Shown: positions 1-37,099 of the stretch, piece after piece
Position numbering within the stretch: the first letter of the stretch is position 1
How the letters are laid out: every line of letters starts with the position of its first letter
Virus record (IMG/VR): IMGVR_UViG_3300025021_000154
Span: 25,087 to 89,086 of that record
Source of the DNA: a virus
Taxonomy: Duplodnaviria > Caudoviricetes
Length of the DNA stretch: 64,000 nt
Direction: 5' to 3' (one strand)
The notes under the pieces: model-generated
Database searches by the model: none
Seen by the model: only the letters and a program-made list of their open reading frames with translations
Told to the model about the DNA's origin: nothing
Made by a program: the position numbers and the translations under genes

Positions 1-1107
1 GAGCTGGTCTGCGTCAACCCGGTTTCGGTCAAGGTCAAATACGCCCAGGGCGAGCTGATCGAGGCCCGGCAATTTCCCGAGGACACACCCGGCGGCGGCG
101 ACTCCATCCCGCTGCCCGTCGAGCAGGTGGTCCACCTCAAATGGGACGCTCCGGCCTTTTCGCCCCGGGGCAATTCTCTCGTGCTTCCCGCCTTTCAGGC
201 CATCGAACTGCTACGCGACTACCGCCGGGCCGAACAGGCCATCGCCAAGCGCTGGGCCACGCCGTTCCGCCTGCTCAAGGTGGGCGGCGCGTTCGGGCAA
301 AAGATGGTGATGCCGGACCAGCGGATGCTCGAACAGGTTCGCGACATGGTCAACAAGATGGACATGAAAAGTGGCCTGGTGGTGCCGTTCTACGTCAATG
401 TCGAAACTCATGGCACCGACGGCCAGGTTCTCAATGTCGAGGACAAGGTCAAGGAGGTGAAGGAAGACGTCGTGGTGGCCCTGGGACTGTCGCGCTCGCT
501 GGTGACCGGTGATGGCCCGAATTTCGCCACCGCCTCGGTAAGCATGCAGAAGATGATGGTCATGATCCGCGAGATCAAACAGGCCGCACGCAAGCTCCTC
601 GACTGGGTGTTCGACGACTGGATGGAGCTGCGCGGCCAGGGCGACAAAACTCTCCAGTTCATCTTCAACGACCTCGACCCCAGCGACGCGGTCGATTTCA
701 AGAAACTCCTCATCGAACTCTACGACCGCAAGCTCATCAGCCGTTCCAGCCTCCAGCTCAAGATGGACTTGGACCCGGACATCGAGACCGCCAATCGCGA
801 AACCGAGAGTAAGAAGATCGACCTGATGGACGAAAAGCAGGTGAAGCCCGTGGTGGATATGGTTGTCTCGGGCATCCTGAGTGTGCCTCGCGCCAGAAAG
901 ATGCTCGGGATTCCTGCCGAGGACAACGAGACTTCAGCAGAGGCCGCGCTCGTCTGGTCAGGAGATCTGGAATCCACCGGCGATGCGGCCGTGTGCGACG
1001 AGTGCAGCCATTTCGACACGGCCACCAACCACTGCCGGGTCCACAACAGCGAGCGCACCTTCGACGCCCCGGCCTGTCGTTTCATCGACCGCCGGGAGCC
1101 CCGCTGA
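1..1107 (+). CDS. Phage portal protein (5' truncated by window edge) with Cys-rich C-terminal tail
   Basis: Frame is open from base 1 (ELVCVNPVSVKVKY...VVHLKWDAP). It lies directly upstream of MuF and the head genes, and has portal-like segments (SPRGNSLVLPAF, LGLSRSLVTGDGPNFATA). Confidence 0.8.
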   Translation, partial: ELVCVNPVSVKVKYAQGELIEARQFPEDTPGGGDSIPLPVEQVVHLKWDAPAFSPRGNSLVLPAFQAIELLRDYRRAEQAIAKRWATPFRLLKVGGAFGQKMVMPDQRMLEQVRDMVNKMDMKSGLVVPFYVNVETHGTDGQVLNVEDKVKEVKEDVVVALGLSRSLVTGDGPNFATASVSMQKMMVMIREIKQAARKLLDWVFDDWMELRGQGDKTLQFIFNDLDPSDAVDFKKLLIELYDRKLISRSSLQLKMDLDPDIETANRETESKKIDLMDEKQVKPVVDMVVSGILSVPRARKMLGIPAEDNETSAEAALVWSGDLESTGDAAVCDECSHFDTATNHCRVHNSERTFDAPACRFIDRREPR

Positions 1108-4100
1108 TGTCATCGGACCTCAAGCAGCGCATCCAGGCGGCTACTCTGAAGAGCCTGACGGCCCGCAACCTCTACAACGACCAGATCACGGCCCAGCTCA
1201 CCCAGGCGCTGAAACAGGCTGAGGACGAGGTCGCCCGCGCCATCCTCCAGTACCGCTCCCTCGGCTCGCTGCCGGACAACAAGCTCGCCGCCCTCAAGGG
1301 GCTGGAAAAGCTCCAGCTCGAACTCGACGACACCATGAAGCGGCTCAAGCGGGAGCAGACCCTGGTTTATCGCAAGACGACCAAGGACTCCTTCAAGCTC
1401 GGCATCCAACAGGGAATCGGAGAGTTCGCCGACGCGGCGCTGCCGTTCTATGCCGACTTGAAACCCGAAGGCATCGATAAGCTGGCCACCAAGGTCTTCA
1501 CCATCGTCGACACCAGTGCCCTCGACTTCATGGCGCAATACAACCTCACGCTCGCCGGTGACGTCCATCGCGAGCTCTCAGACGGCATCAAGCGCACCAT
1601 CCTGAACGGCATCGCCACGGGCAAGGGAGCCGACGATATCGTCCGGGACATGGGCAAGGTGATCATCGACAAGGATTCCTTCCGCCAGGCCGGAAGCCGG
1701 GTGTTCAGCAAGGCCCAGTACCGCATGGAGATGATCGCCCGCACCGAGGTCCTCCGCGCCCACAACATGGGCAGGCTCAAGTTCCACGAGCGGGTCGGCA
1801 TCCAGAAGCTGGAATGGCTGGCTATGGAAGACGAGCGCATGTGCCCGGTCTGTGGCGGCCTGGACGGCAAGACCTTTCCCATCGACAAGTTCCCCCAGCA
1901 ACCCGCGCATCCGCATTGCCGCTGCACCAACGTCGTGGCCTGGCCGATGACCGTCTGCGGCAGCGAGATGGTTGCCAAGGCCGCCGCCCAGGCATCGCAG
2001 GGGGACGCCTGCATTCTCCCGCCCCACGTGCTGGAAGGCATGGCCGATGCCCAGGCCAAGGAGAACGCCAAGCTCAAGAGCGCCTTTGAAAATGGCGACA
2101 TCACCGAGCTCGGCTCGTTGACGGTCAAACAGCTCCAGACCCTGGCGAAACAGAACGGCGTGGCCATCGCCCGGACCAAGGCCGATTTCATCAAGCTGCT
2201 CGATCTGGCCGAGCCGGGAATCGATCATGGTGACCTGGCCGGAGCGGCGCTCAGCGCCAAGCTCAAGGAACACAAGATCGGCCTGCTGCGGAGCAAGGAC
2301 GAACTGATCGAGTTGCTCGGACTGAAGCAGGCGGAACTCAAACAGGCCAAGTTGCTCGCCGCTCAGATGGCGAAGATTCCGCCCGCCGAGGGGCTGGAGG
2401 GCATGACCGCCCAGCAGCTCAAGGAGATGGCGAAGGAGAACAGCATCTCCCTCAACATGACCAAGCAGGAGACCATCGAGCTGCTCGACAAGCTGGAGCC
2501 CGGCGTGGACCACAGCGGACTGATGGGCAAGGAACTCGCGGCAGCCAAGCAGAAGCACGGTATCGGCATTCTCAAGAACAAACAGCAGCTCGTCGAGGCG
2601 CTGCAGAAGAAGGCCGGTACCGACATGGCCGAGTCCGTCAAGCAAAAGGCGGTCTCTGACGCCAAGCAGAAGCTGATCCAGAAACAGAAAACGGCCCTCG
2701 AAGACGCCGCAAAGGCAGTGGTCGTTCCCGACTCGCCGACAGGCTACAAGGATTTCCTCGACACGATTGCCAAGGCGGAACAGGCGGTTTCCGTCGGCAC
2801 CGATCTGCCCCAGGAGATGCTTGCGGCCCACAGCAAGGAAATCGCCTTCAAGAAACAGCTCTTCCAGGACCAGATCGGCAAGCTGAAATCGACCGAGCTC
2901 AAGACACTCGCTAAGGAGACCAAGGTCCAGTATTGGCAATGGGCCAACAAAGACGAGCTGACCACGCTCTTTACAGAGACCGACCCGGGGAAAATCAAGG
3001 CGGTTCAGGCGAGCATCGACGCCAAGCATGCCGCCTGGGCCGAAAAACATGGCGGCAAGAAGAAAGCAGCGCAAGCCAAGCCCATCACTCCGAAAAAGGA
3101 GCCGCCGAGTCCGGTAAAGCCGTCCGAGGCCAAGATCGGCAAGAAAGGTGCGGAGTTCTCAGACGCCGATTCTGCATGGCAGCAAAAGGGACTGCCGTCA
3201 AAATTCAAGAAATCCGGCAAGGCCGCTGTCGGCGGCGCACATGAAAAGGAGTTCTGGACCGACGAGAACGGCGACAAATGGCTGTTCAAACCCAATGGCC
3301 GCAAGGACGATGAGTTCATCGCCTTTGGAGAGGAGGCCGCCTACAAGATCGGCCGTCTGATCGATCCCCACGCCATCGAGGTCCGGACCATCCAGTTGAA
3401 CGGCCGCATCGGTTCCATCCAGAAATGGCGCACCGATCTGCGGGACGACTTCGATTTCCGCAACATCCTGCCTCAGGATCTGACCACCATCGAACTGGAA
3501 CAGATCCAGCGCGAGCACGTGGTCGACTGGCTGATCGCCAACCACGACGGGCATTCCAAGCAGTTCATCCGTGCCAGGGACGGTCGCGTCCACGGCATCG
3601 ACAAAGGCCAGGCTTTCAAGTTCCTGGGACAGGACAAACTCTCGCTCGATTACCACCCCAACGGGGCGTGCGGTGAGGAAGAGCCGTTTTACAACAAGGT
3701 CTTCCGGGCGGCCAAGGAAGGGAAGGTGCGGGTCGATCCGAACGCGACGCTTCGCTACATCCACGAAGTCGAAAAGATCGCCGACGAGGATTATCTCGGT
3801 CTGCTGCGGCCCTACGCCGAGGGCCGGTTCGCCAAGGACCCGGCCGGGCTGAGGCATTTTTACGATCTGGCCCTGGAACGAAAGCACAATCTCCGGCGGG
3901 ACTTCGAGGCTTATTACGCCGATGTGCTGGGGGATCGTGGATTCCGTTTCGACAAGCTGACCGCCGCCACCGGCAAGAAAAAGCTGCTCTCCTCCGCCGA
4001 GGAAGCCCTGGTCGAGGAAGCCCGCAAACTCGGCTGGCAAGGCAAGACATTGCCCTTCGACAGCGGCGACGTGGAGGATCAGAACGCGCTGATTTTCACC

Positions 4101-5678
4101 GAAACCTTCAAAGGGAAAAAGCGCACCGTGGTCAAGATGAAGATCCGGCCGGACACCGACCGCCGCATCGACGAGCTGCTGCGCAAGTACGTGCAGACCA
4201 CTGCCGGAGAAAAGGGGCAACCGCTAAACGAAGACAACTTTTTCGAGACCGTTCTGGACGCCGTCAAGAACGTCAATTTCCACGTCGGTGACGGCAAGTA
4301 CAACCGGACCAAGATCGACAAGGCCCTGCGCCTGCGCAAGAAACTCGAGGCCCTGCAAAAAAGCGCCGATCCCAAGGTCAAAGAAATGGCGGACCACTAT
4401 CTGAAATGGGTCAAGGAGATCGAGGAGTCCGTCGATTGGGACCGGGCCACCAACGGTGTTTTCGAGCAGTACCTGCCCAAGCTCGACGCACAGAAACCCA
4501 AGGAGAAACCGCCGTTCAAGGTGGAACGCGGCAAGGTGACCCACGCCAAGCGTAAGATCGGTTCCGGCACCATCAGCGTCGAGGCCGACGACGTCGACAA
4601 CCGGACCCTGTTCAATCACAACTCCCGCATGCAGGACGGGCATCAGTACACCGTGACTTTCGAGGACGGCACCCGAGTCCGCTATCGGCCTTGGACTGAC
4701 ACCAACCTTTACGCCCAGCGCGGCGAGCTGGAAATGATCCTGGATGGCGACACCACCCCCGGACGGGTCGAGGCCATGTTGGAAAAGCTCGAACAGCTCG
4801 GGATCGATACCCGGGTGGCCACGGCGGAAAACGCCGAACAGATGTATCTGGAGAAGCTCGCCTACATCCGCAAGACCGACAAGAGCGCCGACTACAAACG
4901 GCTGCAGAAATCCCTCGACGACCGCAACGCCACCACCCCCGAGCGGGTCCAGGCCCTGCGCGGCTATTGGCAAAAGGAATTTGGCGTCCAGGACATAACC
5001 CAGCTTTCCGGATACAACCCGCTGGGCGAATACCAGGCAGGTTTTCTGGACCGCGACGCCAAGGGCGGGTACCGGCACCAGTTCCGATTCGATATCACCG
5101 AGGAAGATCTTGAAAAACAGATGAAAGGCTATTCGCTGGTCCACGACTTGACCAACGGCGAGAGCATGTCCGGCTTCATCGACTCGATCATGGAGAACAA
5201 CGGAGCCATGGTCAGCACGGTCGAGAAGATGCGCATGGGTGTGGCTCCGGGTGGAATGTCCCCGGTGGCCGACATGCAGACCGGCGGCGCGAGCTATTTT
5301 TTCACCCGGATCAAGAAACAACCGGTCAGCGATGCTTCACCGGCGCTCTACTTCAAGAAACAGATGCTGCGGCGCATGGACGCCATCAGCTACGACCATG
5401 ACGCCTACGGCAAGGTGATAGACGACTACGTGCAGCGCAACCGGGGGGCCAGCATCGACGACTGGAAGCGGTTCTCGCAACGCCATGGCAACGAGACCAT
5501 CTTCAAATACTCGGTGACGCTGTTGGACAACATCGAGTTCGTCGTGGCCCGCAGCGACAACGAACGCCGGGAGATCATCCAGACTTTCACCCGGCGCGGC
5601 ATCAAGAAACTATCTGACGGGCGCAAGGTGGAGGACATCGTCCATACCCCGCAAAGCTGGAGCAAACGCAAACAATGA
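1107..5678 (+). CDS. MuF (Phage_Mu_F/SPP1 gp7-like) minor head protein, 1523 aa, with SAP/HeH-like repeats, HipA/PI3K-like kinase domain and candidate ADP-ribosyltransferase C-terminal domain
   Basis: ATG overlaps the portal stop (TGATG at 1105-1109). MuF signature IARTE...EWLAMEDERMCPVC...HPHCRC. Kinase motifs KWLFKP, DWLIANHDGHSKQF, IDKGQAF. C-terminal H...SYFFTR...NETIFK pattern. Confidence 0.85.
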   Translation: MSSDLKQRIQAATLKSLTARNLYNDQITAQLTQALKQAEDEVARAILQYRSLGSLPDNKLAALKGLEKLQLELDDTMKRLKREQTLVYRKTTKDSFKLGIQQGIGEFADAALPFYADLKPEGIDKLATKVFTIVDTSALDFMAQYNLTLAGDVHRELSDGIKRTILNGIATGKGADDIVRDMGKVIIDKDSFRQAGSRVFSKAQYRMEMIARTEVLRAHNMGRLKFHERVGIQKLEWLAMEDERMCPVCGGLDGKTFPIDKFPQQPAHPHCRCTNVVAWPMTVCGSEMVAKAAAQASQGDACILPPHVLEGMADAQAKENAKLKSAFENGDITELGSLTVKQLQTLAKQNGVAIARTKADFIKLLDLAEPGIDHGDLAGAALSAKLKEHKIGLLRSKDELIELLGLKQAELKQAKLLAAQMAKIPPAEGLEGMTAQQLKEMAKENSISLNMTKQETIELLDKLEPGVDHSGLMGKELAAAKQKHGIGILKNKQQLVEALQKKAGTDMAESVKQKAVSDAKQKLIQKQKTALEDAAKAVVVPDSPTGYKDFLDTIAKAEQAVSVGTDLPQEMLAAHSKEIAFKKQLFQDQIGKLKSTELKTLAKETKVQYWQWANKDELTTLFTETDPGKIKAVQASIDAKHAAWAEKHGGKKKAAQAKPITPKKEPPSPVKPSEAKIGKKGAEFSDADSAWQQKGLPSKFKKSGKAAVGGAHEKEFWTDENGDKWLFKPNGRKDDEFIAFGEEAAYKIGRLIDPHAIEVRTIQLNGRIGSIQKWRTDLRDDFDFRNILPQDLTTIELEQIQREHVVDWLIANHDGHSKQFIRARDGRVHGIDKGQAFKFLGQDKLSLDYHPNGACGEEEPFYNKVFRAAKEGKVRVDPNATLRYIHEVEKIADEDYLGLLRPYAEGRFAKDPAGLRHFYDLALERKHNLRRDFEAYYADVLGDRGFRFDKLTAATGKKKLLSSAEEALVEEARKLGWQGKTLPFDSGDVEDQNALIFTETFKGKKRTVVKMKIRPDTDRRIDELLRKYVQTTAGEKGQPLNEDNFFETVLDAVKNVNFHVGDGKYNRTKIDKALRLRKKLEALQKSADPKVKEMADHYLKWVKEIEESVDWDRATNGVFEQYLPKLDAQKPKEKPPFKVERGKVTHAKRKIGSGTISVEADDVDNRTLFNHNSRMQDGHQYTVTFEDGTRVRYRPWTDTNLYAQRGELEMILDGDTTPGRVEAMLEKLEQLGIDTRVATAENAEQMYLEKLAYIRKTDKSADYKRLQKSLDDRNATTPERVQALRGYWQKEFGVQDITQLSGYNPLGEYQAGFLDRDAKGGYRHQFRFDITEEDLEKQMKGYSLVHDLTNGESMSGFIDSIMENNGAMVSTVEKMRMGVAPGGMSPVADMQTGGASYFFTRIKKQPVSDASPALYFKKQMLRRMDAISYDHDAYGKVIDDYVQRNRGASIDDWKRFSQRHGNETIFKYSVTLLDNIEFVVARSDNERREIIQTFTRRGIKKLSDGRKVEDIVHTPQSWSKRKQ

Positions 5679-6187
5679 CCATGAAGGACTTTATCGAACA
5701 GGAGAAAGGGCGGCTGCAGGAAGCGCTGCACTGGTTCAACAGCCGGGGCAGCCGCATGACTGTCAGGGAATCCGGGGATCTCTTTCTGGATACCCTGGTG
5801 GGCAGCTTCACCGTCACCCGGATCGGCCCCCATTTCGATTCCGCTGGCAACCACCTGCGCACCGATTTCTGGCTGTTGTGGAAGGCGCTGGGCTACGACG
5901 AGGGCTTTCAGCACGCCCACACCGTCAAGGTCGTCGATGTCAGGATCGAAGACACCCTGACGGCCGAACATGACGGCAAGGAGGTCGAAGGCTGGCTGAT
6001 TGTCGATCTGACCGACGACCTGGGCCGGGTTCACCATGTCGAAATGATCGAGCCCGTTTCCGAACCCGAACTCGCGGCGGACTGGCAAAGATGGATCGCC
6101 TACCGGCAGAAAAACGCCGAGAGATTCCGCCGGATCGACGACCAGCTTCTGGCCGAGCATCTCAGAATTGCGGAGGATTGGTCATGA
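5675..6187 (+). CDS. Hypothetical protein, 170 aa; candidate immunity/antitoxin for the MuF effector
   Basis: ATGA overlap with the MuF stop. Small and acidic, no recognised family. Role inferred from position only. Confidence 0.6.
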   Translation: MTMKDFIEQEKGRLQEALHWFNSRGSRMTVRESGDLFLDTLVGSFTVTRIGPHFDSAGNHLRTDFWLLWKALGYDEGFQHAHTVKVVDVRIEDTLTAEHDGKEVEGWLIVDLTDDLGRVHHVEMIEPVSEPELAADWQRWIAYRQKNAERFRRIDDQLLAEHLRIAEDWS

Positions 6188-6537
6188 AACTGCGCTACAT
6201 GATCGACTCGATATTGGTCGACCGGCGAGCCTCCGTTCCAGAATACGTGCCCGTGGGTGTATGGGTTCAGGGGCCGGGTCCCGGCCTGGATGTGGAGATG
6301 TACTACCTCGACCGGGGACCGGATGGGCTGGTCGACCGCAAGGACGAGGCCGCCTGGGTGGTCAACCGTCTGGTCGAGGCCGGGGCCACTTCGCTTCCGG
6401 CGGATTTTCTCGAATACCACCGGCTGTCCCGCTCTCCCTACGACGGGGTCTTTTCGGAGATTGCCGAGATCGACGAATACCCCTCCCTCGACGCCTGCGG
6501 CAAAGCCGTTCTGGCCCGGCTGAACAACGCCATCTGA
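6184..6537 (+). CDS. Hypothetical protein, 117 aa; second candidate immunity protein
   Basis: ATGA overlap at 6184-6187 (MKLRYMIDSILVDRR...). Followed immediately by the repeated promoter-like motif. Confidence 0.6.
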   Translation: MKLRYMIDSILVDRRASVPEYVPVGVWVQGPGPGLDVEMYYLDRGPDGLVDRKDEAAWVVNRLVEAGATSLPADFLEYHRLSRSPYDGVFSEIAEIDEYPSLDACGKAVLARLNNAI

Positions 6538-6552
6538 AATTCGCCGTCACCC

Positions 6553-6586
6553 TCCGACACATCGCCGACGCTTCCGGTAAGTAACC
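6553..6586 (+). promoter_or_regulatory. Conserved motif copy 1 (TCCGACAC-N10-CTTCCGGTAAGTAA), putative late promoter
   Basis: Same two-block motif with identical spacing at 6553, 11945, 20384 and 27360, each in an intergenic gap. Confidence 0.7.
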
Positions 6587-6640
6587 GCTGAACGCTCCCC
6601 GCAGATCGCGGAGAGCCCAGCAAATTAACCGGAGACGTTG

Positions 6641-9034
6641 ATGGAACTGTTCGCCACAGACCTGGAAAGGCTGGCGTTTCTACTGGAGGCCGATGCGGCG
6701 CTGACCTGCGATCCTGACGAGCTCGGGACGGAGGCCGCCGATCAGTCCGCTCCTGAAGAGCTTCCTCCCGAGAAGCGCCCCAAGTACATCACCAACTACA
6801 TCGGTAGTAAGCAGAAACTCGTTGACTGGATCTGGAAGCATACCCCCGAGGGCGTTGGCACCGTGCTCGACGCCTTCTCGGGGTCTGCGGTCGTGGCCTA
6901 CATGTACAAGACCAAGGGCCTCCAGGTCATCGCCAACGACCGGCTGCGCTACTGCCACCACGCCGCCAAGGCGATTATCGAGAACAACTCGGTTCGCCTG
7001 AGCGAGGACGAAATCGAGGCGCTCCTGGCCGACAACGCCAAGGCTGGCAGCTTCGTTCAGGACAATTTCAAGGGGATCTTTTTTGCCAAGGGCGTCCATG
7101 CGCTGATCGATACGATCCGCGCCAACTGCGACAAACTCTCCGGCATCAAAAAAGACATCGCCCTGTTTGGCCTGGGCAAGACCTGCATGAGCGGCAAAGG
7201 TGGTTTCGGTCATTTTTCATCCTCAACCGACTACGGTCGACGCAAGGACACGCCAGAGGAATTCAAAGACCGTTTGCGCAAGAACCTGCAACGCATCAAT
7301 GCGCTGGTCTTCGACAACGGCAAGGAGAACAAGGCCCACCGCCAAGACATCAACGATCTGCTGCCCAAGGCCAAGGCGGATCTGGCCTATTTCGACCCGC
7401 CTTACGCCACCGAATTTTCCACCACCAATTACGAGCGAGCCTACCACTTCGTGGAGGGGCTCATGACCTATTGGGACGGCCTCGAGATCAAGGCCGACAC
7501 CAAGGTCAAGTATTACGAGACCGACCACAAGACGGTCACCAAGGGTAATGCCAGCGAGTTTTTCCAGACCTTTCTCGGCAATGCCAAGCACATCCGACAC
7601 TGGCTGATCTCCTACCGCGATCACGCTTATCCGAATGAGCAGGAGATGAAGAAAATCATCAGTTCATTCGGCAAGCAAAGCCAGATGAAATCGAAAGATC
7701 ACCATTACGCGATCACCTCCAGGCACGGAGATGCCTCCAACGCCAAGGAACGGCTGTTCGTCTGCATCCCTGGCTCAACAGCCAAAGCGGAGCAAGAGAT
7801 GAAACCGGTGCCGCTGGCCGCTGCTGCGAATTTCCACACCAGCATCCCCGTGGACATCCGGCTGGGCGACAGCGAACGCCTCACTGCCGAAGCCATGGAT
7901 GTCGGGGCACCGGGCGACCCCCAGTTCAGTTTCGTGCTCTGCCGTACCGGCACCAACAAGAACGGCGACCACTTCACCGCCGAGGAGTTGTCCGGTCGGC
8001 ACATGACGGCCGTGAACAAGAAGGTCGATCTGCAGCACTCTCAGGAGTTCAACGACATCGTCGGTGGCGTCGTCGCCGCCGATTATCTGGAAGACGACAA
8101 CGGCGGCCGGGTCGAATGCGTCGGCGAACTGTACGTCCACGACACACCGGCGGCTCGACTCGCCTACAAGCTGATGAAGCGCGGGATCATCTCCCAGGTT
8201 TCCATGGAATGTGATTACCAGGAAGGCGAATGCTCGGTCTGCCACAAGCGCTTTCAAAACAAGGCCGACTACTGCACGCACCTGCGCAAGTTCAAGGGCC
8301 GTGATTTCAACGGCCAACCCGTCTTCGAAATACTGCAGGGTGTCACTTTCACGGGACTGGGCCTGCTCGACCGCAAGGGTGCGGACGAGAACGCCCGAAT
8401 TCTGCAGGTGGCATCGATTCAGAGCCAACCCGACCAATCCCAACCCGAAGGAGATTCCACGATGGAAGACAAAACCAAACCCAACGATGACCCGGCCGCC
8501 AAGACTGAATCAGACGCGGCCAAGAAGAAACCGGCCCAGCAGGAAGGCGATCCTGCCCGTGTTTCCGACCTGGAAAAGGAAAACCGGCAGCTCAAGGCCC
8601 AGGTGGCCGAGTTGCAGAAACGCGTCCAGGAACTGGAAGCTGAGCAAAAAGCCGCAGCCTGCCGTTCCCGGGCGAAGAAGCTCCTGACCCGTCTGGAGAA
8701 GCAGGGACTCTCCTTTGCCTCCGAAGTGGACCGTGACGCCGAACTCAAACGCCTGGCGGAACTGTCCGACGAAGCCTTCACCGCCACCGAGGCGGCCTAC
8801 GAGCGTCTGCCCAAATCGGCCAAGGAAGAGAAACTCGCAGCCAATGACCAGGGGGACAAGCCCGCCGCCAAGGCATCGACGGAACAACCGCTGCGCAGCG
8901 ACGCCGGTGTCCGACCCCACGATGTGGACGACCGCAAGGTGTCGCTCGAAGACCGTCTGCGCGACGGGTTCATGGCCGCTTACCGCAACCGTGTCGGCGA
9001 GGACTCTCCCGAACACTCGGAAATCAACGCATAA
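6641..9034 (+). CDS. DNA adenine methyltransferase (D12/alpha class) - prohead protease - scaffold fusion, 797 aa
   Basis: NYIGSK, motif I DAFSGS, and DPPY (7394-7405). Then a protease-like region (NKNGDHF, VDLQHS, VSMEC, CSVC..YCTH, GLGLLDRKGAD) and a coiled-coil scaffold. Occupies the protease/scaffold slot before the decoration and capsid genes. RBS GGAG upstream; alternative TTG start at 6638. Confidence 0.85.
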   Translation: MELFATDLERLAFLLEADAALTCDPDELGTEAADQSAPEELPPEKRPKYITNYIGSKQKLVDWIWKHTPEGVGTVLDAFSGSAVVAYMYKTKGLQVIANDRLRYCHHAAKAIIENNSVRLSEDEIEALLADNAKAGSFVQDNFKGIFFAKGVHALIDTIRANCDKLSGIKKDIALFGLGKTCMSGKGGFGHFSSSTDYGRRKDTPEEFKDRLRKNLQRINALVFDNGKENKAHRQDINDLLPKAKADLAYFDPPYATEFSTTNYERAYHFVEGLMTYWDGLEIKADTKVKYYETDHKTVTKGNASEFFQTFLGNAKHIRHWLISYRDHAYPNEQEMKKIISSFGKQSQMKSKDHHYAITSRHGDASNAKERLFVCIPGSTAKAEQEMKPVPLAAAANFHTSIPVDIRLGDSERLTAEAMDVGAPGDPQFSFVLCRTGTNKNGDHFTAEELSGRHMTAVNKKVDLQHSQEFNDIVGGVVAADYLEDDNGGRVECVGELYVHDTPAARLAYKLMKRGIISQVSMECDYQEGECSVCHKRFQNKADYCTHLRKFKGRDFNGQPVFEILQGVTFTGLGLLDRKGADENARILQVASIQSQPDQSQPEGDSTMEDKTKPNDDPAAKTESDAAKKKPAQQEGDPARVSDLEKENRQLKAQVAELQKRVQELEAEQKAAACRSRAKKLLTRLEKQGLSFASEVDRDAELKRLAELSDEAFTATEAAYERLPKSAKEEKLAANDQGDKPAAKASTEQPLRSDAGVRPHDVDDRKVSLEDRLRDGFMAAYRNRVGEDSPEHSEINA
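8462..9034 (+). CDS. Putative nested in-frame scaffold protein (internal start), 190 aa
   Basis: AAGGAG at 8448-8453, 8 nt before an in-frame ATG (MEDKTKPND...). Charged coiled-coil sequence follows. Confidence 0.55.
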   Translation: MEDKTKPNDDPAAKTESDAAKKKPAQQEGDPARVSDLEKENRQLKAQVAELQKRVQELEAEQKAAACRSRAKKLLTRLEKQGLSFASEVDRDAELKRLAELSDEAFTATEAAYERLPKSAKEEKLAANDQGDKPAAKASTEQPLRSDAGVRPHDVDDRKVSLEDRLRDGFMAAYRNRVGEDSPEHSEINA

Positions 9035-9046
9035 GGAGGAAACACC

Positions 9047-9409
9047 ATGTCATTTATCAATCCGTGTCACCGCAGCCTCGCCTATGGCGACGGCCACATC
9101 CAGGGCGACGGCCAGCTCGGCCAGGTAGTCCGCGTGGTCGGCAACGACCTGTTCGCCGTCAACACTGACCCCACCAAACGCTCCTTCGGCATCCTGATCA
9201 AGGACTACGCCGGTGGCGAGATGCCCGGCATCTACTGCGACGGCGGCGTTTACGAGACCGATGTCTTCGAAGGGACTATCGTCGCAGGGGATGACCTGAA
9301 AGTCTCCGCCAACGGTCGACTGACCAACGGTATCGCTGCGGGAGAACGCCAGGTCGCCCATGCCATCTCCGTACAGAGCGGCATTCTCAAATTCCGCCTG
9401 TTCGTCTAA
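9047..9409 (+). CDS. Head decoration / capsid cement protein
   Basis: 120 aa between scaffold and capsid, strong AAGGAGG RBS. GD.LKVSANGRL pattern typical of beta-tulip decoration proteins. Confidence 0.6.
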   Translation: MSFINPCHRSLAYGDGHIQGDGQLGQVVRVVGNDLFAVNTDPTKRSFGILIKDYAGGEMPGIYCDGGVYETDVFEGTIVAGDDLKVSANGRLTNGIAAGERQVAHAISVQSGILKFRLFV

Positions 9410-36136: not shown

Positions 36137-37099
36137 ATGAACCTGAATGAGATCCAGTACGGCATCGAGATCGAGACCGTAAAACGCACCCGGGAACAGA
36201 TCGCCTGGGCCATCCACTCGGTGGTGGGCGGCACGGTCCGCCATGTCGGCATCCCGAGCAACTACGACCCCTGGGAGGTCGAGGACCTGCGCGGCCGCGT
36301 CTGGAAGGTGGTGGGGGACGCCTCCCTGACCAGCGTCCCGGCCCATCTGCGAGCAGAGATGGTCAGCCCGGTGCTCGGCTACGACGACATCCCGCAACTG
36401 CAGGAGGTGGTCCGGGCCATCCGCCGCGCCGGGGGCAAGATCAACAGCCAGTGCGGCATCCACATCCATATCGACGCCGCGCCCTTCGACGGCAGGCACC
36501 TGGGTAACCTGGCCAAGATCATTTACAAGCAGGAACCGCTGATCCTCCATGCCCTCGGCATCAGCCGCGACCGCCTCAATCGCTACACCCGGCCGGTCAG
36601 CGACGAGCTGATCCAGCGTATCGAACAGCATCGCCCCCGCACCAAGGATCAGCTCAACCGCATCTGGTACGGCTACCACAACCGCCAGCCCCAGCGCTAC
36701 GACAACAGCCGCTACCACGGGGTCAACCTGCACAACGTCTGGTATCGGGGCACGGTGGAGTTTCGCTGGTTCGAGGCGACCCTCCACGCAGGGCGGATCA
36801 AGGCCTACCTGCAGTTCTGCCTCGCGGTCGCCGCCAAGGCCCTCAACGGCCGGGCCGCCTCCAGCCGCAAGCGGGATTTTGATCCCCAGAGTGCCAAGTA
36901 TGACTTCAGGGTCTTCCTGCTCCACCTCGGCCTGATCGGCGACGAGTTCAAGACCGCCCGCAAGCATCTGATGGCCAACATGCCCGGCGATGCCGCCTTC
37001 AAGAACGGGCGGCCCAAACCGGAGGACGGCCTCCCGATTGAGACCGAAACCACCACTCTCACCAACGAGGCCGGGCATGTTCCCGGCCTCACTGTTTAA
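36137..37099 (+). CDS. Putative amidoligase (COOH-NH2 ligase type 2 / Amidoligase_2)
   Basis: [39 protein letters not shown]. Confidence 0.9.

Follow-up and report, generated by a model that had tools for sequence, protein, structure and literature searches.

A polyvalent MuF-type phage head protein with a predicted kinase and a probable ADP-ribosyltransferase-like domain

Here we examine a 64,000-nucleotide stretch of phage DNA (hereafter the window), part of the 89-kb IMG/VR virus record IMGVR_UViG_3300025021_000154 (Caudoviricetes), and in it one gene, P0001, whose 1523-residue product resembles a phage minor head protein with several domains added. The best explanation overall, and on balance a probable one, is that P0001 is a polyvalent MuF-type minor head protein that may be ejected into the host as a two-enzyme cargo. 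Profile and repeat comparisons firmly indicate a MuF head-morphogenesis domain at the N-terminus followed by two 95-residue repeats, probably of the helix-extension-helix (HeH), SAP/Rho_N-like type, and fold modelling firmly predicts a kinase of the type II phosphatidylinositol 4-kinase (PI4KII)/CtkA/HipA group after them. With moderate confidence, the modelled fold of the last ~190 residues is assigned to the ADP-ribosyltransferases (ARTs). The idea of delivered virion effectors is already known, yet the fixed pair of this kinase with an ART-like domain of the H-Y-E class is very widespread and unstudied. What our analysis newly adds is the presence of near-identical gene copies across bacterial phyla and a weak predicted contact with orfA, the small open reading frame (ORF) that follows P0001.

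Domain architecture of the head protein

A sequence-only reading of this DNA had assigned the protein to a single gene at 1107-5678. ORF analysis bears this out, as the frame is intact on the + strand, and all of the motifs that had been quoted lie where they had been placed (Table 1). Its start codon and the stop codon of the upstream portal gene overlap as TGATG, with GGGAG ~10 nt 5' of the ATG. At the other end, the stop TGA runs into the ATG of the next ORF (170 codons), whose own end overlaps the start codon of a further ORF of 117 codons. The MuF domain, likewise proposed from the sequence, exceeds both its Pfam cut-off (PF04233, 59.3 bits vs 29.6, E = 7.4e-16) and its NCBIfam cut-off (TIGR01641, 65 bits vs 39.65), and many PHROG families of minor head and head morphogenesis proteins match the same region. 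Its Pfam core (aa 160-274, nt 1584-1928) contains a CxxC...HxxCxC cluster. Downstream of the P0001 region, PHROG matches identify, in order, a 798-aa protein of a methyltransferase PHROG, the major head protein, the tail sheath, the tape measure and tail/baseplate proteins. Because the portal gene lies 5' and the head and tail genes 3', P0001 occupies the usual MuF/gp7 gene place in the head module of a contractile-tailed phage. It adjoins the portal gene within the packaging/head module and is a gene of a temperate, contractile-tailed phage or prophage.

The repeats that follow were recognised by internal alignment: aa 335-404 and aa 430-499 align without gaps over 70 aa at 43% identity (E = 2e-19), with a period of 95 residues. 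When a profile was built from the two main helix-extension-helix units, it additionally picked up a weak second unit inside each repeat and a third HeH-like site at aa 590-604, the latter as a partial and weak match (independent E-value 0.0045). Two copies of the ~95-aa tandem repeat first read from the sequence are thus upheld and its third site is weak. That third helix is enclosed in a helical, Lys/Pro-rich linker (aa 501-675), of which aa 661-675 form the least conserved and most gap-prone stretch. We scored two HeH families, Rho_N (PF07498), which matches at unit 2, and SAP (PF02037), which matches at unit 1, and both fall below threshold in P0001 itself, Rho_N with E = 0.01 and 16.2 bits vs a cut-off of 24.9 and SAP with E = 0.14. 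At the same positions Rho_N passes the Pfam cut-off in the orthologues P0023 and P0057 (25.3-26.4 bits), and SAP reaches it in the orthologue P0097 (24.0 bits).

For the kinase-like block, aa 676-962 were aligned with 31 relatives from viral contigs and folded with AF2, which gave a model with a mean predicted local distance difference test score (pLDDT) of 88.6 and a predicted template modelling score of 0.87. Foldseek matched this model to at least 500 protein kinases. On re-alignment the type II PI 4-kinase alpha ranked first (15.4, over 234 residues with a root-mean-square deviation of 3.8), followed by the Helicobacter pylori kinase CtkA (15.0), Fam20C (13.0), Legionella MavQ (12.8), PI3K/mTOR-type kinases (10-11) and HipA and actin-fragmin kinase (10.6 each). 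The check that had been proposed for this block therefore returned the expected kinase fold, with two lobes and membership in the PI4KII/CtkA/HipA group. In the model, strands 1 and 2 flank GGAHEK, strand 3 carries K728 and the next helix E743, and NHDGHSKQ comes after a long helix and IDKGQ after two short strands. The full catalytic set is present, comprising the P-loop, beta3 Lys, helix-C Glu, catalytic Asp, Asn/Gln metal ligand and DFG-type Asp. Across 41 full-length orthologues, G710, H712, K728, E743, D807, N812, H813, D814, H816, Q819 and D832 are invariant, and the equivalents of K728, D807, D814 and D832 are also invariant in 29 distant relatives that span two sequence flavours of the kinase domain.

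The sequence-only reading had raised the possibility of a pseudokinase from the change of N to Q in DGHSKQ. Position 819 is Q or N among close relatives of the same flavour and N in the mycobacteriophage Onyinye, and the second flavour (NWDVVG...DN, RIDxGG), found in more distant family members, also has N there. The Lys and three Asp are invariant throughout. Because an amide is kept at this metal-ligand position, an active enzyme with an intact-looking active site is the better reading of these sequences.

The block shares with HipA, CtkA and the type II PI 4-kinases a catalytic loop of the D-x-H-x-x-N type and the DFG equivalent IDxG, and we take its P-loop, GGAHEK, to resemble the GAQEK loop of HipA. 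It differs from HipA in having Q for N in the P0001 subfamily and in lacking the HipA N-terminal domain and a HipB partner: HipA_N and Couple_hipA had no Pfam match, and the adjacent genes are the portal gene and two ORFs that match no family. HipA_C (PF07804) covered only the catalytic loop of P0001 and stayed below its cut-off (14.8 bits vs 30.5, E = 0.023), its best match among distant relatives being E = 1.3e-6, and PI3_PI4_kinase had no Pfam match in P0001. Further, profile searches with the kinase and C-terminal alignments and a search of the whole of P0001 against PDB sequences returned nothing meaningful. The fold by itself does not favour a protein, lipid or other substrate; lipids are unlikely ones in bacteria.

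The C-terminal module and its ART-like domain

The AF2 model of aa 963-1523 (561 residues, pLDDT 81.3) is divided into four parts: a small alpha/beta domain that carries an invariant WQGK...D..EDQN motif, a three-helix bundle, a beta-rich and helical domain, and a terminal alpha/beta domain. The middle sub-domains matched only generic helical bundles in structure libraries, with three-helix bundles for aa 1039-1113 dominating. We consider it likely that the terminal domain (aa 1330-1523) is ART-like, of the H-Y-E class, with DarT as the nearest fold. The only coherent, if weak, PDB matches to it in Foldseek are DarT structures (DarTG system; PF14487; 7omw, 8baq) at E = 0.13 and probability 0.5; DarT has the H-Y-E site proposed for the domain and is similar in size, and its matches span almost the whole chain, all other hits being helical. 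In a viral structure library, the matches were uncharacterised proteins of ~200 residues from giant viruses, an iridovirus and baculoviruses (E = 2e-3 to 8e-3). An ART family of such arthropod DNA viruses, to which these viral-library hits may belong, has been described as related to DarT (Iyer et al. 2022, PMC9503650). A first language-model search returned unnamed clusters only; with named clusters, it returned giant-virus domains of unknown function and then Shigella OspC, DarT, PARP and rifampin-ART (Arr) at 0.85-0.92, which we take as leads only.

The candidate triad that had been read from the sequence fits this model, in which H1346 ends a strand, Y1397 starts the SYFFTR strand and E1463 starts the ETIF strand. 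These residues are 97%, 99% and 100% conserved, respectively, among 145 representatives, and R1376, S1385, D1389, R1401, D1425, D1432 and K1467 are each 99-100% conserved in the same set. In the 41 full-length orthologues, too, the C-terminal motifs vary little or not at all. R1376 may correspond to R51/R52 of DarT (PMC11543638), both being a conserved Arg between the H and the Y, matched by position alone. The P0001 domain differs from DarT in that it has no significant sequence or profile similarity to it, no DarG or NADAR neighbour, and is fused to a virion protein rather than standing alone; searches of orfA and orfB with Pfam, PADLOC and NCBIfam found neither a DarG macrodomain nor NADAR.

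Several results weigh against the ART assignment. Foldseek of the 561-residue model against the PDB gave nothing at E = 1e-3 or better, and no match was found over the C-terminal domain in Pfam (E up to 1, including DarT PF14487), PADLOC, NCBIfam or PDB sequences. When compared by hhalign with an alignment of 17 DarT sequences, the domain reached a probability of 0.7% with a narrow alignment and 2% with the 145 representatives. The loop before Y1397 (aa 1381-1396) is conserved and has low model confidence. The hhalign values and the absence of a sequence-family match, together with the fact that the terminal domain was modelled inside a multi-domain model, would suit an alternative in which only the kinase is an enzyme of a known type and the C-terminal domain is some other alpha/beta enzyme or binding domain, the DarT likeness reflecting a common strand-helix arrangement. 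Yet three libraries and methods converge on ART-superfamily proteins, with the DarT hits covering nearly the full chain, and the H, Y and E are conserved. A relaxed profile alignment with DarT, not significant overall, is colinear and pairs H with H, Y(FF) with F(YF) and E with the invariant DarT Glu. An authentic ART also follows the same kinase, in the same place, in actinophage proteins. We thus regard this alternative as somewhat unlikely. Of the ART claim made from the sequence, the conserved H-Y-E residues hold and an ART/DarT-like fold is probable, while the PDB match is weak and the profile comparison is not significant.

The actinophage proteins are McProf gp54, a mycobacteriophage minor capsid fusion, and Onyinye gp16, which have the same kinase domain (34% identity, E = 1e-36 and 28% identity, E = 1e-23, respectively). 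In both, and in the metagenomic protein P0130, the kinase is followed by a C-terminal ADP-ribosyltransferase of family PF03496 (R-S-E class). McProf gp54 and Onyinye gp16 thus resemble P0001 in the order of head-protein domain, kinase and C-terminal ART. They differ in that their ART is VIP2/Alt-like and unrelated in sequence to the P0001 C-terminal domain, in that their N-terminal domain is VG15 or absent, and in lacking the HeH repeats and the 560-aa module. That one kinase is followed by either of two unrelated ART types speaks for the ART reading and for joint action of the pair, and suggests by analogy that the kinase-plus-ART combination may have been selected as such.

Other identities for the C-terminal domain were considered. 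An R-S-E reading of its motifs (YR... / VST / NE) was dropped, since fold matches and conservation favour H-Y-E, as was PBECR, the MuF-C domain of phage Mu, which had no Pfam match and has a different topology. Ct_MAD was likewise set aside as a candidate identity. ART-PolyVal (PF18760) had no Pfam match in P0001 at E up to 1, and ART-PolyVal genes were found neither in 301 genomes nor in control genomes.

Distribution of the family and related systems

To survey the family, we built a profile from the final 220 residues and scored 1.84 billion representative proteins with it. The C-terminal domain was found in 1352 clusters (50% identity) at E <=1e-3, 353 of them at E <=1e-30, and more than 190 full-length relatives of P0001 were identified at 42-95% identity. 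The domain is nearly always at the very end (median 4 residues from the terminus) of proteins of 800-3181 residues. P0173 (1783 aa), in which it is internal (residues 958-1177) with ~600 residues after it, is the sole clear exception among the 145 representatives. Of 148 distant representatives, 112 retain the entire 560-residue C-terminal module as one block. When 29 diverse members were aligned, the kinase block was present in all of them and MuF was recognised by Pfam in 20, and Pfam found occasional extra domains in relatives, including NUDIX, metallopeptidases, Zeta toxin and DUF3626. Judged by these sequences, the kinase and the C-terminal module form the constant core and the variable parts are inserts, which makes the family the opposite of a polymorphic toxin. 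In line with constraint along the whole protein, dN/dS against five near relatives is 0.05-0.15 in all five P0001 segments, indicating purifying selection.

Among 50,697 phage records, the only carrier of the C-terminal domain is gp15 of the Pseudanabaena phage Pan1, and nothing in the text and supplement of the Pan1 paper says whether mass spectrometry detected gp15 in virions. Putative stand-alone forms of the domain, 215-289 aa in length, also occur, including two from contigs of 62 kb and 3.8 Mb; a scan of viral contigs with a 215-aa stand-alone form gave no match.

The 8.7-kb stretch from the portal to the methyltransferase gene (window 1-9100) has counterparts of 91-96% DNA identity in genomes whose titles assign them to different phyla (loci L084-L098, L123, L129, L133 and L135). 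The isolates among them include Desulfosarcina alkanivorans PL12 (a complete chromosome), Desulfocarbo indianensis, Desulfofustis glycolicus and Desulfobulbus rhabdoformis, as well as the gammaproteobacterium Ectothiorhodospira shaposhnikovii DSM 243. Metagenome-assembled genomes (MAGs) with the stretch include members of the Verrucomicrobiota, Hydrogenedentales and Rhodospirillaceae. Between the near-identical copies dS is 0.1-0.4. We read this pattern as a sign of a temperate phage lineage whose host range may be unusually wide or have expanded recently; the MAG copies, unlike those in isolates, could be put down to binning errors. In a Bryobacterales record (OZ252029.1), there are three separate MuF-kinase-ART-like genes (L122, L132 and L154) with 57-58% identity to P0001, and given these separate copies the genome holds several prophages of the lineage.

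The sequence-only reading had not recognised the architecture from described MuF toxins. It falls within the published class of polyvalent proteins, which are virion-embedded, multidomain proteins that combine MuF with ARTs and kinases, occasionally carry Rho-N/SAP HEH domains as DNA binders (with an example in Desulfovibrio) and, by prediction, enter the cell together with the injected DNA (Iyer et al. 2017, PMC5512222); and, as described above, mycobacteriophage minor capsid proteins already join this kinase to bona fide ARTs. P0001 has at least two effector-type domains in one head-operon ORF and resembles polyvalent proteins in being large, multidomain and encoded among virion genes, with MuF as the head-associated module and the kinase and probable ART as modifiers. 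It differs from them in three respects. The polyvalent kinase clade has no C-terminal lobe, whereas the P0001 kinase keeps a helical C-lobe and is PI4KII/CtkA/HipA-like; the common ART of polyvalent proteins is H-Y-D (Tox-ART-HYD2/N4-like), whereas that of P0001 would be H-Y-E with a DarT-like fold; and the polyvalent set is shuffled, whereas the kinase and C-terminal module of P0001 are a fixed core.

Proposed function and neighbouring genes

In the reading we prefer, the MuF domain would carry a few copies of P0001 into the procapsid beside the portal, much as SPP1 gp7, a protein one-fifth as long, is found in the virion bound to the portal (cited in PMC5576092). The HeH repeats would keep the protein on the packaged DNA, and the polypeptide would leave the head with the DNA at infection. 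After entry, the kinase and the ART-like domain, drawing on ATP and NAD+, respectively, may modify host proteins or nucleic acid, with the effect of favouring phage establishment or blunting defence, and orfA and orfB may be partners or inhibitors that keep P0001 harmless in the producing cell. Host or defence proteins had been named as the target from the sequence; DarT, the nearest fold, modifies DNA, so that DNA is a candidate as well.

Several considerations count against this proposal. We infer packaging, ejection, DNA binding and both activities from domain composition; a 167-kDa protein must unfold to traverse the tail; the constancy of the C-terminal module wherever the family occurs fits a head-assembly role equally well; and a late, in-cell role has been argued for a HipA-family kinase encoded between portal and capsid genes in gut phages (Benler et al. 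2021, PMC8008677). The last two bear on an alternative in which P0001 acts late, in the producing cell or procapsid, where the kinase and ART would modify phage proteins or DNA or the module would be structural in the head or portal. The kinase and the 560-aa module accompany MuF constantly while the inserts (Zeta toxin, NUDIX, peptidases, DUF3626) vary, P0001 is located in the late head operon, and the next large gene, of a DNA methyltransferase family, is likewise in the head module. The kinase of the gut phages, from the 'Gratiaviridae', is comparable to P0001 in location and kinase class, and such a late role has been proposed for head-module HipA-family kinases of this kind (PMC8008677). 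However, the strictly conserved catalytic-type polar residues argue for enzymes rather than a scaffold, and the best-studied precedents of a virion ART and a phage kinase, T4 Alt and T7 gp0.7, hit the host early (PMC5512222). T4 Alt is packaged in the head and injected, as proposed for P0001, although it is an R-S-E enzyme and not fused to MuF, while T7 gp0.7 acts on host transcription and translation factors as an early product and, unlike the proposed P0001, is not packaged. On this evidence a late role seems unlikely to us.

The two small coupled ORFs bear on a further alternative. orfA was found in 128 of ~157 related loci (32-95% identity) and the orfB frame is conserved in 130; orfA has no Pfam, PHROG, PADLOC or NCBIfam match, and orfB no family match in Pfam, PADLOC or NCBIfam. 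A predicted complex of orfA with aa 963-1523 scored 0.57 vs 0.00 for the best of three controls, with runs agreeing in at least 68% of contacts and a partner pLDDT of at least 85. Among 80 solved complexes 58 passed the same mark, against 2 among 110 mismatched pairs; only 7 of the 80 passed with scores <=0.60, as did both of the passing mismatches. By the tool's own account, a pass in the band that holds 0.57 is false more often than true, except for a pairing with good prior grounds. It is possible, on this weakly supported contact, that orfA is a partner or inhibitor of the C-terminal module.

MuF-effector fusions are known as MuF polymorphic toxins, for example the EFV ART toxin encoded by a prophage of Enterococcus faecalis (Jamet et al. 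2017, PMC5576092). P0001 shares with them an N-terminal MuF in the head module, a C-terminal enzymatic extension, a small downstream ORF and the delivery hypothesis. It differs from them in having two enzyme domains, DNA-binding repeats and conserved downstream ORFs, and its family does not show the variable C-terminal toxin on a constant MuF N-terminus that defines the class. That P0001 is such a toxin, its ART-like domain and perhaps its kinase killing non-lysogenic competitors while orfA and orfB serve as immunity proteins, would accord with its N-terminal MuF, with the coupling of both ORFs to its stop, with a described prophage ART toxin neutralised by two immunity proteins (PMC11699363) and, weakly, with the orfA complex, but it is quite unlikely given a C-terminus that shows no polymorphism across the 1352 clusters, small ORFs that are syntenic and conserved rather than variable cassettes and match no macrodomain, NADAR or known immunity family, and a complex score in that error-prone band.

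We also entertain, as a long shot, a variant in which the C-terminal domain is a DarT-like nucleic-acid ART held on the phage genome by the HeH repeats and acting with the head-module methyltransferase, such that DNA-modifying enzymes loaded into the capsid would label either the phage DNA as it enters or the host DNA around the point of entry, ahead of phage gene expression. If true, DNA-marking capsid enzymes could help explain near-identical prophages in different bacterial phyla, and in ADP-ribosylating DNA a phage would be employing a chemistry that has until now been known from DarT, an anti-phage toxin.

Phage proteins co-injected with DNA act before phage gene expression and are therefore prime candidates for host takeover and counter-defence. 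To our knowledge, little work exists on such proteins other than T4 Alt, the Dar proteins of P1 and the virion RNA polymerase of N4. The P0001 family is very large, its C-terminal half has no Pfam or PHROG model, and it would place a kinase with an intact-looking active site and a probable NAD+-using enzyme on a capsid-anchoring domain. Cultured entry points are the prophages of Desulfosarcina alkanivorans PL12 and Ectothiorhodospira shaposhnikovii DSM 243 and the Pseudanabaena phage Pan1.

Table 1. Positions of P0001, its predicted domains and motifs, and neighbouring genes in the window
Feature	Nucleotides	Residues	Strand	Basis or remark
P0001, whole gene, probable MuF-type polyvalent minor head protein	1107..5678	1-1523	+	intact ORF
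MuF / SPP1 gp7 head-morphogenesis domain	1107..2006	1-300	+	Pfam, TIGR, PHROG
HeH repeat unit 1, full SAP/Rho_N-like helix-extension-helix plus weaker second	2100..2318	332-404	+	internal alignment
LTVKQLQTLAKQNGV		338		quoted repeat motif, position confirmed
HeH repeat unit 2, 95 aa after unit 1	2382..2606	426-500	+	internal alignment
MTAQQLKEMAKENSI		433		quoted repeat motif, position confirmed
Third, weak HeH-like helix	2874..2927	590-607	+	partial match to repeat profile
LKSTELKTLAKETKV		593		quoted third-site motif, position confirmed
Atypical protein-kinase-like domain	3132..3992	676-962	+	fold model and conserved catalytic residues
GGAHEK	3231-3248	709-714		kinase P-loop
KWLFKP		724-729		position confirmed
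K728	3288-3290	728		kinase site, beta3
E743		743		kinase site, helix-C
DWLIANHDGHSKQF	3525	807-820		kinase block, position confirmed
NHDGHSKQ	3540-3563			kinase catalytic loop
IDKGQAF		831-837		position confirmed
D832	3600-3602	832		kinase site (IDKGQ)
Conserved middle of C-terminal module	3993..5093	963-1329	+	AF2 model
C-terminal ART-like domain	5094..5675	1330-1523	+	candidate H-Y-E residues below
H1346	5142-5144	1346		C-terminal domain
SYFFTR		1396-1401		C-terminal domain
Y1397	5295-5297	1397		C-terminal domain
NETIFK		1462-1467		C-terminal domain
E1463	5493-5495	1463		C-terminal domain
Portal gene, C-terminal part, cut by window start	1..1107		+	phrog_2739, E 6e-60
orfA, 170 aa, translationally coupled	5675..6187		+	ATGA overlap with P0001 stop
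orfB, 117 aa, coupled	6184..6537		+	ATGA overlap with orfA stop
798-aa head-module ORF between P0001 region and major head gene	6638-9034		+	phrog_27806 end to end, 1630 bits; also phrog_56
320-aa ORF near end of high-G+C block	36137-37099		+	amidoligase-enzyme PHROG phrog_2443, E 9e-94

Beyond the virion genes, the G+C content falls from ~0.62 to 0.52-0.57 at about 38 kb of the window. After this drop a defence island, which may be phage cargo or host flank within the virus record, occupies window ~40500-63400 (+ strand), with the BREX genes BrxC, an Eco57I/PglX-type methylase, PglZ and BrxL. A Shedu SduA gene and an AbiEii-like ATPase are inserted among the BREX genes, and SbcC/SbcD-like proteins and a predicted pPIWI-associated nuclease are encoded downstream in the same island.

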